Part shown: piece after piece, positions 35,291 to 41,226 of the stretch
Layout: each line of letters opens with the position of its first letter
Numbering within the stretch: position 1 is the first letter of the stretch
Assembly (NCBI GenBank): GCA_964427715.1
Contig: CAYRUV010000001.1
Coordinates: forward strand, 124,125-188,124
DNA: 64,000 bases
Source: an uncultured archaeon
Lineage (GTDB): Archaea > Iainarchaeota > Iainarchaeia > Iainarchaeales > VGJJ01
Reading direction: 5' to 3'
Translations under genes and position numbers: made by a program
The notes under the pieces: model-generated
The model's input: the letters and a program-made list of their open reading frames with translations, nothing else
Told to the model about the DNA's origin: nothing
The model's database searches: none

Positions 35291-35884
35291 CTATTTTTCG
35301 ATCATTCCATACTTTTTGTTCTTCTCAGTCATCTTGATGAAGTAACGCAAGCGTTGCTCCTTGACCTCTTGTCGGCCCGTGCTGGTGAGGGAAATCCAAT
35401 CAATGCGGATTTTCTTGTATGCCGCGGGGAACTTTTGAAAGTTCTTCCACACGACTGGGTTTTCCTTCAAGCGTTTTTCAATCCACGCGGGAATGACTAG
35501 TTTTCCATGGGCCTTCAAGGCCTTGTTGGCATGCTTCCTGGAAAGGTGCGCATTCCCTCCCACATGTGCCAGTCCTTCGGGTTTCATTTTTCCTTCTTTC
35601 ATTAATCGACGAATGTGTTCCATGTTCAATGCAGAAATAGGGCTTCCCTTCCTGCGCGGAGAAAAGCGTTGGGCATATTTCTCCTCATCGATTCCTTTCG
35701 CGGTGGAGTCAATCCACCCAAAACAAAGGGCTTCTTTCACCGCGTCCACGTAAGGAATTCGAGGCTTGCCCGAATTTTTCTTGTAGTAGATGAGCCAAAT
35801 CTCTTTCTTCTTCTCGTGATTCTTCTCTAACCACTTTCTCCACGCGGGAGCGTCGGTAACGTAGAGTGTTTCGCCGATGTTCAT
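35291..35884 (-). CDS. YdeI/OmpD-associated family protein
   Basis: WRKWLEKNH, EIWLIYYKK, EALCFGWIDS, RFSPRR; ATGA overlap with the OTC gene. Confidence 0.85.
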   Translation of the reverse strand: MNIGETLYVTDAPAWRKWLEKNHEKKKEIWLIYYKKNSGKPRIPYVDAVKEALCFGWIDSTAKGIDEEKYAQRFSPRRKGSPISALNMEHIRRLMKEGKMKPEGLAHVGGNAHLSRKHANKALKAHGKLVIPAWIEKRLKENPVVWKNFQKFPAAYKKIRIDWISLTSTGRQEVKEQRLRYFIKMTEKNKKYGMIEK

Positions 35885-36879
35885 TGGAGGATCGCACTCA
35901 ACAGGGCCATCTGCACGTACATCCTGTTCTTGGCTTGCGGCCAGACGAGGGATCGCTTGCTGTACATGACCTTGTCGGTAATTTCTTCTCCCTTGATGGC
36001 CGGGAGGCAGTGCATGGCTCGCACATTCTTGGCGCACTTGTCCAATAGCTTGTCATTCAATTGGAAGGGGAGGAACATTGGGCGAATCTTTTCCTTGTCC
36101 AAATGCATATGCATGCTCTCCCATTCGTCGGTGTACACCACATTCACGTGCTTCAATTCTTCCTTGGAAGGAATTTCGTGGAAGACCTTGATCTCTGCGC
36201 CTGTTTTCTTGGCGAGCTTGTGTGCGGTCGCGAGGAAGTGCTTGGATACGGGGAATTGTTTGGGAGTGGCCACCCACACATTCACGCCTAACATGGCTCC
36301 TCCCACAAGGAGAGAATCCGTGATGTTGTCGGCGTTCCCCACGTACAATAACGTAAGACCGGTGAGCTTTCCAAAATGCTCACGGATGGTGAAATAATCA
36401 GAAAGGATTTGACACGGGTGATCTTCATCGGTTAATCCATTGATGATGGGAATGTTTACGTACTTGGCAAACGCATCCACTTCCGCGTGGGGAAATACGC
36501 GGGCCATGATGGCATCGCAGTATCCTGCAAGAGTGCTGGCCGTGTCGCGCCAGTCCTCTCCTCGTCCCATTTGGGTGTTGGCCTTGTCGATAAAAGTAGA
36601 GTGTCCCCCCAAGAGTGCGATTCCATTATCGAATGAAACGCGTGTGCGCGTGGAGGGCTTTTCGAAGAGAAGCGCGACGTTCTTTTGGTGGAGAAGTTTG
36701 GGCATCTCCATACCTTGAGCGTGCATGAGTTTGAGTCGCTCGGCGAGGTGGTAGAGCATGTAGGCTTGGTGCAGGTGCGTGTCTTCGATGTTCAGGAAAT
36801 CCTTCCCCCTGAGGGATCTCAATTCCTTCGTGGCGAGTATTCGCTTGATCTCATTTCGTAATGCGGGTTCCGTTTTCAT
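35881..36879 (-). CDS. arcB: ornithine carbamoyltransferase (probably catabolic)
   Basis: FEKPSTRT, HPCQ, YTDEWESM, HCLP; overlaps the carbamate kinase gene. Confidence 0.9.
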   Translation of the reverse strand: MKTEPALRNEIKRILATKELRSLRGKDFLNIEDTHLHQAYMLYHLAERLKLMHAQGMEMPKLLHQKNVALLFEKPSTRTRVSFDNGIALLGGHSTFIDKANTQMGRGEDWRDTASTLAGYCDAIMARVFPHAEVDAFAKYVNIPIINGLTDEDHPCQILSDYFTIREHFGKLTGLTLLYVGNADNITDSLLVGGAMLGVNVWVATPKQFPVSKHFLATAHKLAKKTGAEIKVFHEIPSKEELKHVNVVYTDEWESMHMHLDKEKIRPMFLPFQLNDKLLDKCAKNVRAMHCLPAIKGEEITDKVMYSKRSLVWPQAKNRMYVQMALLSAILQ

Positions 36880-37768
36880 GGTCTAACACTCCTTGCAGTT
36901 TTCCCATTTTTCCAATGTACGAGGTCTTTCCTCCCTTTTGGACAAATCGGATGCTGGCCTCGACTTTAGGGGCCATGCTTCCCTGTCCAAATTCTCCCTT
37001 CTTCCAATAGGATTGGGCGGTCTTCAGGTTCATATGTTTGAGAGGAATGGGTTTTTTCGAGTAATAGTCCTTGTACGCGTGCTCCTCATTCGTGAGGATA
37101 GCCAACGTGTCACTCTTGAGAGAGTTGCCTAACACCTGCGCGGCGCGATCCTTATCGATGACCGCTTCAATGCCCTGGTATCCGTACGTGGTTTTGAATA
37201 CAGGGATTCCTCCTCCCCCGCATGCAATGACCACCTCATGGGCCTCTAATAATTTTTCAATCGTTTCAAGCTCAATGATTTTTTTGGGTGTGGGGGATGC
37301 AACCAGTTTGCGGTATCCTTTCTTGGGGTCGTGCATGAAGGATACGCCTTGTTTGTTCCACTCCTTGACCTGAGAAAGTCCTCCCCACGGTCCAATGGGT
37401 TTGGAGGGTTTCTTGAATTTAGGATCGTTCTTGTCCACTTCCACATGCGTAAGGATCGCGGCGGTTTCAATGGTGGGTTTCCAGTGTTTTAGTCCCATGG
37501 TGAGAAAGTGTCCAATCTGCCCCTGCGTCATTCCCACTTCCACATCTAATGGCATCGGGGGTATTTTCTTGGCGGCGTGCATTTGGATTTCTAAGTTCCC
37601 CACTTGGGGTCCGTTTCCGTGAACGATGACGATGGGAATTCCCTTGCGTACGAGGGGGATGATATCCTTCACGGCCTGTCGGACGTTTTTCATCTGCTGG
37701 GAGTAGTTCCCGATTTCATGTTCTCGTATGAGGGCATTCCCGCCAAACGCCACAATGAGGGGTTTCAT
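36851..37768 (-). CDS. arcC: carbamate kinase
   Basis: VAFGGNAL, VHGNGPQVG, KPIGP, CGGGGIPV, AVIDKD, GSMAPK. Start reassigned to 37768. Confidence 0.93.
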   Translation of the reverse strand: MKPLIVAFGGNALIREHEIGNYSQQMKNVRQAVKDIIPLVRKGIPIVIVHGNGPQVGNLEIQMHAAKKIPPMPLDVEVGMTQGQIGHFLTMGLKHWKPTIETAAILTHVEVDKNDPKFKKPSKPIGPWGGLSQVKEWNKQGVSFMHDPKKGYRKLVASPTPKKIIELETIEKLLEAHEVVIACGGGGIPVFKTTYGYQGIEAVIDKDRAAQVLGNSLKSDTLAILTNEEHAYKDYYSKKPIPLKHMNLKTAQSYWKKGEFGQGSMAPKVEASIRFVQKGGKTSYIGKMGKLQGVLDHENGTRITK

Positions 37769-37819
37769 TCCCCTGTTGAGCGTTTGGAATTTATATAGGG
37801 GGACGCCTCCCTCTTTTTC

Positions 37820-38692
37820 ATGGCCCGAAACGCTGCCCGTCGTGTCCGGATGACAATTCCCTCTACTGGAAAAGTGGTCCACGCTTCTATTATTCGCCCC
37901 TTGCCAAAGAGGGGTCGCACCTACATGACGACGCGGAACATTTCTGTCATGACTTCCGCTCAGGTCAAGTCAGTTGAGGGATTTTTGCGCCAGTTGAAAC
38001 GATTGGAGATGCAATATCGAAATCGGAGAATTTCAACCGTTGACTATGAGGTGTATCGCCATGCTCTCGAAAAAAAGTTCGTGGCCCTTACTCGAATGAG
38101 AATGGCTCAAGTGAAGCGGGTGTCAGAGCGCCACCACAAATCCGGGATGCTCTTCAATGATCGCTCATTCAAGGAGCGCGGCCGTGCATTGATGGCCCAG
38201 TCGAAGGATTTCACAGTGGCCATTTTGGATATTGACTTCTTCAAGTCCGTGAATGACACCATCGGCCACGATGCGGGGGATGCCGCTCTGGCTTTTTTTG
38301 GAAATCAAATCAATCGGGTCTCACGAGGTATGCGGGGATTCGCGGGGCGAATAGGGGATGGGGAGGAGTTTGCCGTGGCTATTCCGGGTGGAGCTATCCA
38401 CATGATTGGGTTTATTCGCACTCTGAGCAAACGCATGCAGACCCAGTTCGCGCGCGAGGAAACCACGCGGACTATGCTGCAAGGTAAGCTTCCAACCTTC
38501 AGTGCGGGGGTCGCCTTCGGCACGGAAGGGAAAAAGTTTGAGGATGTAATGAAGATTGCCGATGCGCGGGAGATTCTATCCAAAAAAGGGAGAAACCGTG
38601 TGACAATACCGCTAGGAAAAGACAACATGCCTCGAACGGTTCGTATCAGTTCCGATGAGAGCTGGTTGAAGGGCAAAGTCTCCCGTCACTAG
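37820..38692 (+). CDS. GGDEF-domain (diguanylate-cyclase-like) protein with variant RIGDGEEF loop
   Basis: AILDIDFFKSVNDTIGHDAGD, RIGDGEEFAVAIP, FSAGVA, KIAD...KKGRNRV; Arg-rich N-terminal region. Confidence 0.85.
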   Translation: MARNAARRVRMTIPSTGKVVHASIIRPLPKRGRTYMTTRNISVMTSAQVKSVEGFLRQLKRLEMQYRNRRISTVDYEVYRHALEKKFVALTRMRMAQVKRVSERHHKSGMLFNDRSFKERGRALMAQSKDFTVAILDIDFFKSVNDTIGHDAGDAALAFFGNQINRVSRGMRGFAGRIGDGEEFAVAIPGGAIHMIGFIRTLSKRMQTQFAREETTRTMLQGKLPTFSAGVAFGTEGKKFEDVMKIADAREILSKKGRNRVTIPLGKDNMPRTVRISSDESWLKGKVSRH

Positions 38693-38727
38693 ATACATTA
38701 TTATTCCGTCGGAAGTTGATTGCATCC

Positions 38728-39429
38728 ATGCGTCTCGTCTCCTTGTTTTCAGGTGGAAAGGACTCCACGTATGCCACACACTTGGCGAAATGGTCCGGCC
38801 ACGAGATTGTGTGTTTGCTATCCATGAAACCCGTGGATGCCGACTCCTACATGTTCCACACGCCCAACATTGATGCGACTGCATTGCAGGCCGAGGCGAT
38901 GGGCATTCCACTCGTGAGGGTGTACACGAAGGGAGAAAAAGAGAAAGAATTAGTGGAGCTCAAGGATGCCCTGCGTGAATTGAAAAAATCTGCGAAGATT
39001 GAAGGGGTTATCACGGGGGCGGTTTCCTCCGTGTATCAAGCCTCTCGGATTGAGCGCATCTGTCACGAGCTAGATTTGTACTGTTTCAACCCTCTCTGGC
39101 TATCCAAGCCCGAGGCGCATTGGCATGAGTTGCTATTGAATGGTATGGAGATCGTTTTAGTGCGGGTCGCCGCGCAGGGACTCGACAAGAAGTGGTTGGG
39201 CCGAACAATGGACATTCCTTCCATTCTTGCATTGCAAAATATGCACCATCATGGAGTGAGTTCGATTGGGGAAGGGGGAGAATTCGAATCCTTCGTCTGC
39301 GATGCTCCTCTGTTCAAGAAAAAAATAGTTATCGAGAAATACAAGGATGAATGGAAAGGAATGCAGGGTACGAGGCACATCCTGAAAGCCAAGCTGGTCG
39401 ATAAATCAGCGGGGAAGGGATTGAAATGA
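38728..39429 (+). CDS. dph6: diphthine--ammonia ligase (Dph6/DUF71 PP-loop ATPase)
   Basis: LFSGGKDS, SYMFH, GAVSSVYQ, PLW, GEGGEFESFV. Confidence 0.9.
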   Translation: MRLVSLFSGGKDSTYATHLAKWSGHEIVCLLSMKPVDADSYMFHTPNIDATALQAEAMGIPLVRVYTKGEKEKELVELKDALRELKKSAKIEGVITGAVSSVYQASRIERICHELDLYCFNPLWLSKPEAHWHELLLNGMEIVLVRVAAQGLDKKWLGRTMDIPSILALQNMHHHGVSSIGEGGEFESFVCDAPLFKKKIVIEKYKDEWKGMQGTRHILKAKLVDKSAGKGLK

Positions 39430-40013
39430 ACCTCCATTCCCATGTGTTAGTGGTGGATTGCTCGGATCGTGATGATTTATTGACGCGTCGCCAGTTTGTG
39501 TGGCCGATTCAGCGAAACATTCATGGATTGTCCTCCTCGATTCATCTCTCCAAATTCTCCAAGTCTTCCTTGAAGGGATTCGACGCAGTGATTTTCTCCG
39601 GCTGCACCCTCAAGGATAATGCCTTTGTTTCGCATGCGAAAAATCTCGGGTGGTTAAAGGAAGCTGGAATTCCCCTGCTGGGTATTTGTGCAGGTCATGA
39701 GTTGCTGGGGATTGTTTTTGGTGGAAAACTGGAACGATTGAAGGTCCCCGTGATTGGGATGGAAACCGTGAAGGTGGATGGGAGGAAAGCCCATGGGTTG
39801 CATTTGGAGGAAGGAGTGTTCTCCGCGTATCACTTGAATGGAAATGCCGTGTCTCTCCCGAAGGGATTCATGGGGGTGGGTCAATCCACGCGGGTGAAGA
39901 ATGAGATAATGATTCATCCCGAGTTGAAAGTGGTGGGGTTCCAATTCCATCCCGAATACATCCACGGAAAGTTCATTCAATCATTCATTTACTGGGCCGA
40001 GAAAAAGAACTAG
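39426..40013 (+). CDS. class I glutamine amidotransferase domain protein
   Basis: IFSG, LGICAGHE (nucleophile Cys), FQFHPE (His-Glu); ATGA overlap with dph6. Confidence 0.85.
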   Translation: MNLHSHVLVVDCSDRDDLLTRRQFVWPIQRNIHGLSSSIHLSKFSKSSLKGFDAVIFSGCTLKDNAFVSHAKNLGWLKEAGIPLLGICAGHELLGIVFGGKLERLKVPVIGMETVKVDGRKAHGLHLEEGVFSAYHLNGNAVSLPKGFMGVGQSTRVKNEIMIHPELKVVGFQFHPEYIHGKFIQSFIYWAEKKN

Positions 40014-40987
40014 CACGTTCCGCTAGAGGGCCAGACTTGGTAGGCGAATTGAGGAGTTCCACTCTCAGGGTCATAATATCCGCCGCCCGTAAGAGGGGAT
40101 TCTTTCTCCCATATTTCTCGGCAGTTGAATGCAAATCCACACCCTGTGCAGAATGACTTTTTCCGGCACACTTTATCGATGCCATCGAATTGGGCGCTTT
40201 CTTTCGTGATTAAATCTCTCTGGCAGAGCTGGGCGTTGATTCCTGTGAGGACCAATTCGTGTGTCTCCTCATCAAACCCTCCTCCTTCAGAGTGGGCCTT
40301 CAGGATGAGCTGGAATGTTCCAATGGTGGTGAGGGAAAGAGACACGTTCACGTTCTGGGAATCTCCCGATTCGAGGGAAGGGATGGTGGTTTCTATTTTT
40401 TGGATCTCAATGGGTTTATTCTTCCCCGCGACGATTTGGTTTTGTAGGAGTGTTGCGGTGAAGATAACATTCTCCGCCTCCACTCCTCCGATGTTGTGGA
40501 TGGTGGTCTGGATGGGGTATTCGGTGGTTCCTTGCAGGGCGAATGGACTCGTTGCGAGGGTGTTTTCCATTTCCAATTGCGCGGGTTCTTTTCCGATGTA
40601 AAGTATACACGCGTGCAGCTCGTTGAGCGTCTCGCACCTTGCGGAGAGGGTGGTTTTGATTCCCTGGTTAATTCGGATGCGATCCCCTGTGACGGAGAGG
40701 GAATAGGGGCATGATTCAAGAGAGGGGCAGCAGTTCTCTCCTGAGCAGGCGAAGGATACGTTGCGCGTGGTCGCATCGAGGTTACGAGCGTAAATCGTGT
40801 CGCCTTCTTTCAAAGTAAGAGTGACCGACGAGGTTTTTCCTAGGGATGCTTGGGCCTCCAACAATAATGCGGGGGCGTGCTTCGCAAGGGCCGTTTGGGG
40901 GGTGAAAAATGAGGCGAAGTTAAAGAAAAAAACCCCTATCAGGGCGATGGCCACAATGGCCACGAGGAGAAGATTGAACACGTTCAT
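40010..40987 (-). CDS. membrane-anchored CARDB/Ig-like Cys-rich surface protein
   Basis: N-terminal TM; TTIHNIGGVEAENV, IPSLESGDSQNV; several Cys pairs; ATGA start at 40987. Confidence 0.7.
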   Translation of the reverse strand: MNVFNLLLVAIVAIALIGVFFFNFASFFTPQTALAKHAPALLLEAQASLGKTSSVTLTLKEGDTIYARNLDATTRNVSFACSGENCCPSLESCPYSLSVTGDRIRINQGIKTTLSARCETLNELHACILYIGKEPAQLEMENTLATSPFALQGTTEYPIQTTIHNIGGVEAENVIFTATLLQNQIVAGKNKPIEIQKIETTIPSLESGDSQNVNVSLSLTTIGTFQLILKAHSEGGGFDEETHELVLTGINAQLCQRDLITKESAQFDGIDKVCRKKSFCTGCGFAFNCREIWEKESPLTGGGYYDPESGTPQFAYQVWPSSGTC

Positions 40988-41226
40988 CGTTTGAATCCCC
41001 ATTTGTATTGGAGCATGAGAAGTTTCTTGAGTACGAAGGCAATAATGAGGCCGAACGCCGTGACCACGATCAAGTCTTCCCAATCTCCCGTGCGCAGGAA
41101 GTAGAGTCGTTGCTTGATGACAAACTCATCGATGGCCAAAAGAAAAATGACCACCAGTCCAAACGCCAGGATGAATAATCCGATGCGCATGAATTGGCTC
41201 AGTATGCGGATGAGGGTATTCTTCAT
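40984..41226 (-). CDS. small 2-TM membrane protein
   Basis: Two hydrophobic helices; overlaps the lig stop and the next start. Confidence 0.6.
   Translation of the reverse strand: MKNTLIRILSQFMRIGLFILAFGLVVIFLLAIDEFVIKQRLYFLRTGDWEDLIVVTAFGLIIAFVLKKLLMLQYKWGFKR

Follow-up and report, generated by a model that had tools for sequence, protein, structure and literature searches.

The stretch of DNA analysed here (the window) is 64,000 bp long and comes from the genome of an uncultured archaeon of the Iainarchaeota (Iainarchaeales; VGJJ01). It covers positions 124,125 to 188,124 of contig CAYRUV010000001.1 in assembly GCA_964427715.1. Two overlapping genes on its plus strand are the subject of this analysis. 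The first is dph6, encoding the diphthine-ammonia ligase of diphthamide synthesis, and the second encodes a small class I glutamine amidotransferase (GATase). The two products probably make up a two-subunit, glutamine-dependent diphthamide synthetase built like the split archaeal GMP synthetase.

Elongation factor 2 (EF-2) carries a conserved modification, diphthamide, which diphtheria toxin targets. Pathway databases give its last step as a reaction of diphthine with free ammonia (EC 6.3.1.14). Class I GATases obtain NH3 from glutamine by way of a cysteine thioester. Adenylation of the diphthine carboxylate by Dph6, with NH3 then displacing AMP, is described in PMC3541065 and, as far as Su et al. 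are reported there, in PMC3585130. The amide source for the in vitro activity of Dph6 was ammonia according to that same report of Su et al. in PMC3585130.

The dph6 product matched Pfam PF01902 (E 1.5e-61) and scored above the equivalog cut-off of TIGR03679 Dph6_archaeal (267.7 bits vs 197.3). It aligned over its full length with PH1257 (PDB 2d13, E 3e-55) and PF0828 (PDB 3rjz, E 3.5e-50). The PP-loop and the Dph6-type motif EGGEFE were both present (Table 1). A C-terminal EGGE/D-x-E motif (E188 of PF0828) marks Dph6, whereas ENGE-F/Y-H marks the DUF71-B12 subfamily (PMC3541065). EGGExE was found in all 42 of the GATase-linked or fused Dph6 proteins examined. By these matches the product of the first gene is a bona fide archaeal Dph6.

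The second gene product matched Pfam PF00117 (E 5.5e-21). Its catalytic triad is Cys88, within the sequence GICAG, and His175 and Glu177, both within FHPE. All three residues were invariant across 17 orthologues. An AlphaFold model of the protein had a pLDDT (predicted local distance difference test) of 91.9. Archaeal GuaA-A structures were the best fold matches when this model was used in Foldseek (probability 1.00, template modelling score 0.75-0.83). A PDB profile search also placed the GATase subunits of split archaeal GMP synthetases nearest among solved proteins (1wl8, 2d7j, 2a9v, 2lxn and mutants; E ~1e-29 to 1e-27). The scores against the models for GMP synthase subunit A were far below the cut-offs (61.9 bits vs 198 for NF001975 and 62.4 vs 172.15 for TIGR00888). 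The best curated models were nonetheless GuaA N-terminal and GMP synthase subunit A. The fold and triad are those of a class I GATase, and glutaminase activity is predicted.

The dph6 stop codon and the GATase start codon share the four nucleotides ATGA. A sequence-only reading of the window had described an intact Cys-His-Glu GATase overlapping the dph6 stop codon in this way, and both open reading frames (ORFs), at the coordinates it gave, and the intact triad were confirmed. A Shine-Dalgarno-like stretch precedes the GATase start, and GGAGG-like purine-rich stretches were likewise seen here at the majority of the 17 orthologous junctions. The A/T-rich stretch ATACATTATTATT is a possible promoter of its own, which would give a dph6-GATase transcript with a short leader.

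Table 1. Features of the dph6-GATase locus and its neighbours, in window positions.
Feature	Position	Strand	Remarks
dph6, diphthine-ammonia ligase (PP-loop ATP pyrophosphatase)	38728..39429	+	233 aa; PF01902, TIGR03679
PP-loop SGGKDS of Dph6	38749..38766	+	aa 8-13
Dph6-type motif EGGEFE	39271..39288	+	aa 182-187
Possible alternative dph6 start	38716	+	in-frame TTG
Dph6-associated class I glutamine amidotransferase	39426..40013	+	195 aa; PF00117
Subfamily motif QFVWPI of the GATase	39492..39509	+	aa 23-28
GICAG of the GATase	39681..39695	+	aa 86-90
Cys88	39687..39689	+	codon tgt
His175	39948..39950	+	
Glu177	39954..39956	+	
ATGA overlap	39426..39429	+	GATase ATG 39426-39428, dph6 TGA 39427-39429; read directly; geometry of translational coupling
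Shine-Dalgarno-like purine-rich stretch GGGGAAGGG	39411..39419	+	within the 3' end of dph6 and 6 nt upstream of the GATase ATG; putative function
TATA-like A/T-rich stretch ATACATTATTATT	38693..38705	+	23-35 nt upstream of the dph6 ATG; recognised from sequence only
GGDEF-domain gene	37820..38692	+	directly upstream of dph6
Ornithine/aspartate carbamoyltransferase and amino-acid-kinase (carbamate-kinase-like) genes	35881..37882	-	mutually overlapping; just upstream of the GGDEF gene
ORF without Pfam match	40010..41083	-	357 aa; convergent with the GATase gene, overlapping its last 4 nt

The conservation of the pair was surveyed in the window's family, Candidatus Iainarchaeum and relatives. This set held 17 other genomes, 16 of the window's genus and one (G017) of a second genus. 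A GATase orthologue was present in all 17. The junction could be read at 17 family loci, 16 from other genomes and the window itself, and dph6 was immediately upstream on the same strand at every one of them. The overlap was the 4-nt ATGA at 15 of the 17 loci, with a 1-nt overlap at one and an 8-nt overlap at another. This pairing is far beyond chance, as the lowest identities among the loci were 35% for the GATase and 52% for Dph6. No GATase orthologue was found in the remainder of the window's order.

An order of the Nanoarchaeota (Woese/Pacearchaeota) was sampled via locus L056 and comprised 81 genomes, 22 of them with a strong GATase match. Dph6 was encoded directly upstream in 15 of the 22; in five more it was on the same strand, 0.8-3.2 kb upstream (L056 is the only annotated locus among these five). 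The two genes were on separate contigs in the remaining two. Ten of the 15 direct pairs had the ATGA overlap and four had gaps of 1-76 nt. One had an uncertain start, which the scripted call put 41 nt inside dph6.

A pattern scan of Joint Genome Institute (JGI) metagenome contigs gave 80 loci of the subfamily. Eight of these had too little upstream sequence, leaving 72 that were informative. The genes were linked at 67 of the 72: dph6 was directly upstream at 62, fused in frame at two (L242 and L275) and further upstream at three. Five loci were without dph6, and four of these five also lacked the N-terminal subfamily motif. A 4-nt NTGA overlap was seen in 60 of the 67 pairs, a total that includes the two fusions. 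Ten metagenome GATases were looked up by exact match and NCBI names were obtained for five, from Candidatus Bathyarchaeia and Methanotrichaceae/Methanothrix. These were labelled 'GMP synthase (glutamine-hydrolysing)', 'subunit A' or 'hypothetical protein'.

Over the three surveys the 4-nt overlap was present at about 85 of 99 junctions (15/17 in the family, 10/15 in the Nanoarchaeota and 60/67 in metagenomes). The pairing spans at least two DPANN phyla plus the metagenome loci, some of which carry Bathyarchaeia or Methanotrichaceae GATase labels. The sequence-only reading had proposed a synteny survey and had held that a pairing unique to this genome, with no interaction, would refute its idea. 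The pair is not unique, as it recurs in the family, in the Nanoarchaeota order, in metagenomes and in fused form.

Natural fusions of the two proteins were sought by exhaustive HMMER search over 1.84 billion representatives. An earlier word-indexed search for longer proteins with the window GATase had returned no fusions, which reflects the sensitivity limit of that search. The HMMER search returned proteins of 421-470 aa with a C-terminal GATase match. Six had the Pfam architecture PF01902 (N-terminal) plus PF00117 (C-terminal) and four were added by further search, giving at least ten in total. Among those with a named source are MFZ2471518.1, a 'diphthine--ammonia ligase [Methanothrix sp.]', and proteins of Candidatus Micrarchaeota and Candidatus Aenigmarchaeota that bear the name 'TIGR00289 family protein'. 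The PP-loop, EGGExE and residues equivalent to the GATase Cys, His and Glu were invariant in 10/10 fusions. The domain order is the gene order of the window, synthetase first and then GATase. An AlphaFold2 model of fusion P0057 (421 residues, built on the ten fusion sequences) had a mean pLDDT of 88.1 and a predicted template modelling score of 0.87, which indicates that the two modelled domains are confidently fixed relative to each other.

Phylogenetic trees were constructed for the GATase and for Dph6. Both were quick maximum-likelihood searches (LG+G4), with the Shimodaira-Hasegawa-like approximate likelihood ratio test (SH-aLRT) as the only support measure. In the tree of 100 GATases every linked and fused GATase fell into one clade of 70 rows (SH-aLRT 96). 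Its members included 17 Iainarchaeum, 15 Nanoarchaeota, two nearby and ten fused sequences and 23 database representatives with the subfamily motif. These 23 share an N-terminal (E/Q)FVxP(I/V) and GICAG; the clade is defined in this analysis and is not a curated family. The GATase domains of GuaA, PyrG, motif-less representatives and unlinked small GATases of bacteria and Micrarchaeota were outside the clade. Since the GATase belongs to a separate clade and its closest solved relatives are GuaA-A subunits, the partner of Dph6 is, on this tree, a branch of its own among the GuaA-type glutaminases, associated with Dph6, and no stray GuaA-A.

Distant small GATases from Prolixibacteraceae, Gemmatimonadota, one Micrarchaeota metagenome-assembled genome and one uncultured archaeon (27-31% identity) were considered as members of the clade. 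They were rejected, being outside it and having no Dph6 in the flanks fetched or on the same contig. Those at L046, L048 and L053 (Prolixibacteraceae) and L051 (Gemmatimonadota) are about 188 aa long, form sister groups of the linked clade and stand in varied contexts. No DUF71 gene was found in the fetched flanks of these four loci. G080 (Prolixibacteraceae) was the sole one of these genomes searched whole, and has a DUF71 gene about 0.5 Mb from the GATase. At L050 (2970-4531, Candidatus Pacearchaeota) the genes for a GATase of the linked clade and for a 342-aa protein overlap through ATGA, and the 342-aa protein matches UPF0371/PRK13663 over the N-terminal two thirds of that family. Dph6 is encoded 3.8 kb upstream of this GATase, and helix-turn-helix (HTH), SIMPL-like and RecQ genes lie between.

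In the Dph6 tree the sequences of the window's family were monophyletic (SH-aLRT 99) and fell together with the order's stand-alone Dph6, and the AsnS-fused forms made up a clade of their own (SH-aLRT 93). The forms fused to the class I GATase were scattered on both trees, and the well-supported branches force only one to two origins. Position 105 of Dph6 was tried as a marker of the partner, with YQ-A in 34 of 42 linked proteins vs R/K in 19 of 26 others. It was rejected as it fails in the Nanoarchaeota, where stand-alone Dph6 also mostly has YQA or YQS, so that position 105 carries a lineage signal.

The window genome is 0.9 Mb in 19 contigs and is 85.6% complete. Because it is incomplete, absences were cross-checked in four fuller genomes of the genus (93-96% complete), among them G015, which is recorded as a complete genome. 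A single DUF71 gene was found in the window genome. Dph2 (PF01866, 267 bits) and Dph5 (TIGR00522, 191 bits vs a cut-off of 114) were present. Archaeal EF-2 was also present (1024 bits) and has a canonical HEDAIHRG loop with the target histidine. This Dph6 is therefore the sole candidate for the final step in making diphthamide in this genome.

Other enzymes that might accept ammonia from the GATase were also sought. PyrG was the sole other class I GATase in the window genome. The C-terminal domain of GMP synthase (TIGR00884, PF00958) had no match in the window genome. It was also absent from all 16 other genus genomes, where only weak matches (<25 bits) to other PP-loop proteins were seen. TrpE/PabB and CarB were not found in the five genomes searched, four of which are the 93-96% complete ones. 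Searches for HisF and NadE turned up only partial matches (18-31 bits), which belong to other proteins with a TIM barrel or a PP-loop, and no real HisF or NadE. A guaA-B or trpE partner elsewhere in the genome had been put forward for checking in the sequence-only reading, and neither was found in the genus genomes searched.

Genome G017, of the second genus, encodes a complete fused GuaA (595-aa frame with its own GATase; L113, G017:C3:19705-23559) and keeps the dph6-GATase pair. GMP synthase was seen in G017 alone of the 17 other family genomes, which hints that purine salvage is not uniform across the family. An AsnB-like protein of 284 aa is encoded in the window genome (L155:1189-2043, minus strand, G000 contig C12). 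It has only the Asn_synthase (PP-loop) domain and is without the class II glutamine amidotransferase (GAT-II) domain. In the complete genome G015 the homologue (L154:841-2259) is 472 aa long and has GAT-II. The 284-aa gene is either truncated or encodes an NH3-dependent or trans-served synthetase.

Three other readings of the pair were weighed. The DUF71 protein and its glutaminase could amidate another protein carboxylate or a small molecule, instead of or besides EF-2. The second subfamily of DUF71 has a different predicted substrate, in B12 salvage, and reviewers of the same paper commented that fused GAT domains do not tell which reaction receives the NH3 (PMC3541065). A patchy distribution of the partner is also compatible with a side function. 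This reading is nevertheless unlikely, as EGGExE is kept in the window Dph6 and in every linked or fused Dph6 examined, and the window protein is above the Dph6 equivalog cut-off. The sole DUF71 gene, found beside Dph2, Dph5 and the EF-2 histidine, must also supply the Dph6 function if diphthamide is made.

The GATase could also act on its own as a hydrolase, such as a gamma-glutamyl peptidase of the Peptidase C26 type, and be co-transcribed with dph6 without working with its product. A weak match to PF07722 Peptidase_C26 (E 5.6e-5) and the name 'gamma-glutamyl-gamma-aminobutyrate hydrolase family' given to orthologues at NCBI are in line with this. Gamma-glutamyl peptidase 1 was among the fold matches, and stand-alone hydrolases with the class I GATase fold exist. 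Set against these, the top matches in both sequence and fold were ammonia-donating GuaA-A subunits and not C26 peptidases. An unrelated neighbour would hardly hold a 4-nt overlap at so many junctions across phyla, or fuse repeatedly in frame, making an independent hydrolase quite improbable.

Least probable of the three is that the GATase feeds a synthetase encoded elsewhere (GMP synthase subunit B, or the AsnB-like protein without GAT-II) and stands after dph6 for historical reasons: the JGI and NCBI labels 'GMP synthase (glutamine-hydrolysing)' or 'subunit A', the nearest solved structures and the 284-aa protein point that way, but at 62 bits the GATase falls far short of the 172- and 198-bit cut-offs, the GuaA C-terminal domain is missing from the 16 genus genomes, G017 keeps the pair despite its fused GuaA, G015 keeps it although its AsnB-like homologue has its own GAT-II, and the fusions join the GATase to Dph6 and not to GuaA-B or AsnB-like enzymes. 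Service to GMP synthase had been named in the sequence-only reading as the finding that would overturn it, and this possibility fails on the same scores and genomes.

Several observations weigh against a dedicated Dph6-glutaminase enzyme. Most families of the window's own order are without a class I GATase partner, and the GATase was found in only 23 of the 81 genomes of the Nanoarchaeota order. In a few genomes genes lie between the two, such as the HTH regulator and SIMPL-like gene at L056 and L050. Linked and stand-alone Dph6 of the Nanoarchaeota interleave on the Dph6 tree, with 13 parsimony changes of which at least four are forced by well-supported branches. No Dph6 residue was found that tracks the presence of the partner. 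Co-transcription and fixed gene order are, by themselves, insufficient as proof of a common reaction. Dph6 persists while the glutaminase has repeatedly been gained or lost, which makes the glutaminase an accessory. The patchy distribution would be accounted for by a Dph6 that presumably works with free NH3 alone. NH3-only Dph6 is common in close relatives, and the Dph6 subunit of the pair therefore probably retains NH3-dependent activity.

A two-subunit, glutamine-dependent diphthamide synthetase, as first suggested from the window alone, agrees with the conserved pairing, the fusions, the single GATase clade and the lack of an alternative acceptor. From these sequences we infer complex formation, ammonia transfer and glutamine dependence of the pair.

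The architectures of Dph6 in the window's order were compared in a sample of 61 genomes. Fusions with GAT-II were counted by open-frame length and Pfam was checked on six. Four architectures were seen, among them stand-alone Dph6 (~228 aa) and, in the window's family, the form coupled to a class I GATase. Fusions of GAT-II, Asn_synthase and Dph6 (~700 aa) were found in about 20 of the 61 genomes, in sister families of the order. Fusions of Asn_synthase and Dph6 without GAT-II (~506 aa) were found in four genomes, two of which were checked. The AsnB-Dph6 fusion loci, with or without GAT-II, are L136, L140-L142, L144, L147, L149 and L150. The class I pair and the GAT-II fusion were never found together in the genomes checked. 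Within a single order the same enzyme is seen with three donor modules as alternatives, and the window's genus is without every other candidate acceptor tested.

Variation in the NH3 source of DUF71/Dph6 was proposed in 2012, and the cases cited were a class II GAT/AsnB fusion, present in a few archaea, and the RidA domains of eukaryotes (de Crecy-Lagard et al., PMC3541065). A class I partner for Dph6 is absent from that paper, and none was found in any paper retrieved. The general idea of organism-specific NH3 donors thus dates from 2012, and the class I partner predicted here is a new form that is apparently unpublished. The sequence-only reading had stated that Dph6 has no known glutaminase subunit. 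That statement holds for class I partners in the literature found and is too broad for class II, where the GAT/AsnB fusion had already been proposed.

The closest parallel is the split GMP synthetase of archaea such as M. jannaschii and P. horikoshii (2lxn, 7d40, 1wl8, 2a9v). It too has a free-standing class I GATase of ~190 aa with a Cys-His-Glu triad and a separate PP-loop ATP pyrophosphatase. In both systems NH3 is required by the acceptor enzyme once it has adenylated its substrate, and fused two-domain forms exist for both. The acceptor here is Dph6 (DUF71), and the substrate would be the diphthine side chain on EF-2 and not xanthosine monophosphate (XMP). The window GATase also differs in belonging to its own clade, in scoring below the GuaA-A cut-offs and in having no GuaA-B in the genus. 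The GATase comes first in GuaA fusions, in contrast to the Dph6 fusions, where the synthetase comes first. In the split M. jannaschii enzyme the GATase is activated by the PP-loop subunit when this is loaded with substrate, and NH3 passes through a tunnel in a transient complex (bioRxiv 10.1101/2022.02.27.481963).

Three further systems were compared. The GAT-II/AsnB-DUF71 fusions of Methanohalophilus mahii, Methanosalsum zhilinae and Candidatus Nanosalinarum also tie a glutamine-hydrolysing module to Dph6, with glutamine as the proposed NH3 source (PMC3541065). Their module is of class II (N-terminal nucleophile type), includes a second, AsnB-type PP-loop domain and is N-terminal to Dph6. The window has instead a class I triad enzyme alone, encoded by a separate overlapping gene downstream. 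Eukaryotic Dph6 (yeast YLR143W) has the same DUF71 domain and an appended C-terminal YjgF/RidA module suggested to provide local NH3 (PMC3541065; PMC3585130). That module is of the deaminase type and is no glutaminase. Stand-alone Dph6 proteins PH1257 (2d13) and PF0828 (3rjz, 3rk0, 3rk1) align over the full length with the window protein and share its PP-loop and GEGGEFE, and differ in having no glutaminase partner in the reports found.

In the proposed mechanism Dph6 would adenylate the diphthine carboxylate on the histidine of the EF-2 HEDAIHRG loop. The GATase would hydrolyse glutamine through Cys88, His175 and Glu177. The nascent NH3 would be passed to the Dph6 active site, most likely in a transient or stable complex. 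Diphthine-EF-2 would thus take the place that XMP has in the split GMP synthetase. The 4-nt start/stop overlap would couple synthesis of the two subunits and keep them roughly equimolar, and Dph6 alone would presumably still use free NH3. A broader and more speculative possibility is that the diphthamide synthetase of archaea is a modular amidotransferase, with a single Dph6 scaffold on which the nitrogen donor has been exchanged repeatedly, being absent, of class I (as a subunit or fused) or of class II (fused as GAT-AsnB). The class I glutaminase might then be switched on only when ATP and diphthine-EF-2 are bound to Dph6. This wider scheme is put forward tentatively and is less likely than not.

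The neighbouring genes are included in Table 1. The gene directly upstream of dph6 encodes a GGDEF domain in an archaeal host. Upstream of this is the carbamoyltransferase and kinase gene pair. CarB was not found in the genome. The two may be an ATP-yielding citrulline/carbamoyl-phosphate pair that also releases NH3. The 357-aa ORF converges on the GATase gene from the other side.

If the pair works as proposed, many archaea, including several DPANN lineages, Bathyarchaeia and Methanotrichaceae, would make diphthamide with a glutamine-hydrolysing enzyme that has a previously unassigned subunit. This would call for the definition of a new EC-type activity. The widespread annotation 'GMP synthase subunit A' would be corrected for these proteins, a label that inflates predictions of purine biosynthesis for reduced DPANN genomes. 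The pair would also be a natural experiment in which a GuaA-type glutaminase was re-targeted between PP-loop enzymes. Should the glutaminase be gated as in the wider scheme, this would be, to our knowledge, the first protein-substrate-gated glutamine amidotransferase feeding NH3 to a modification of the translation machinery.

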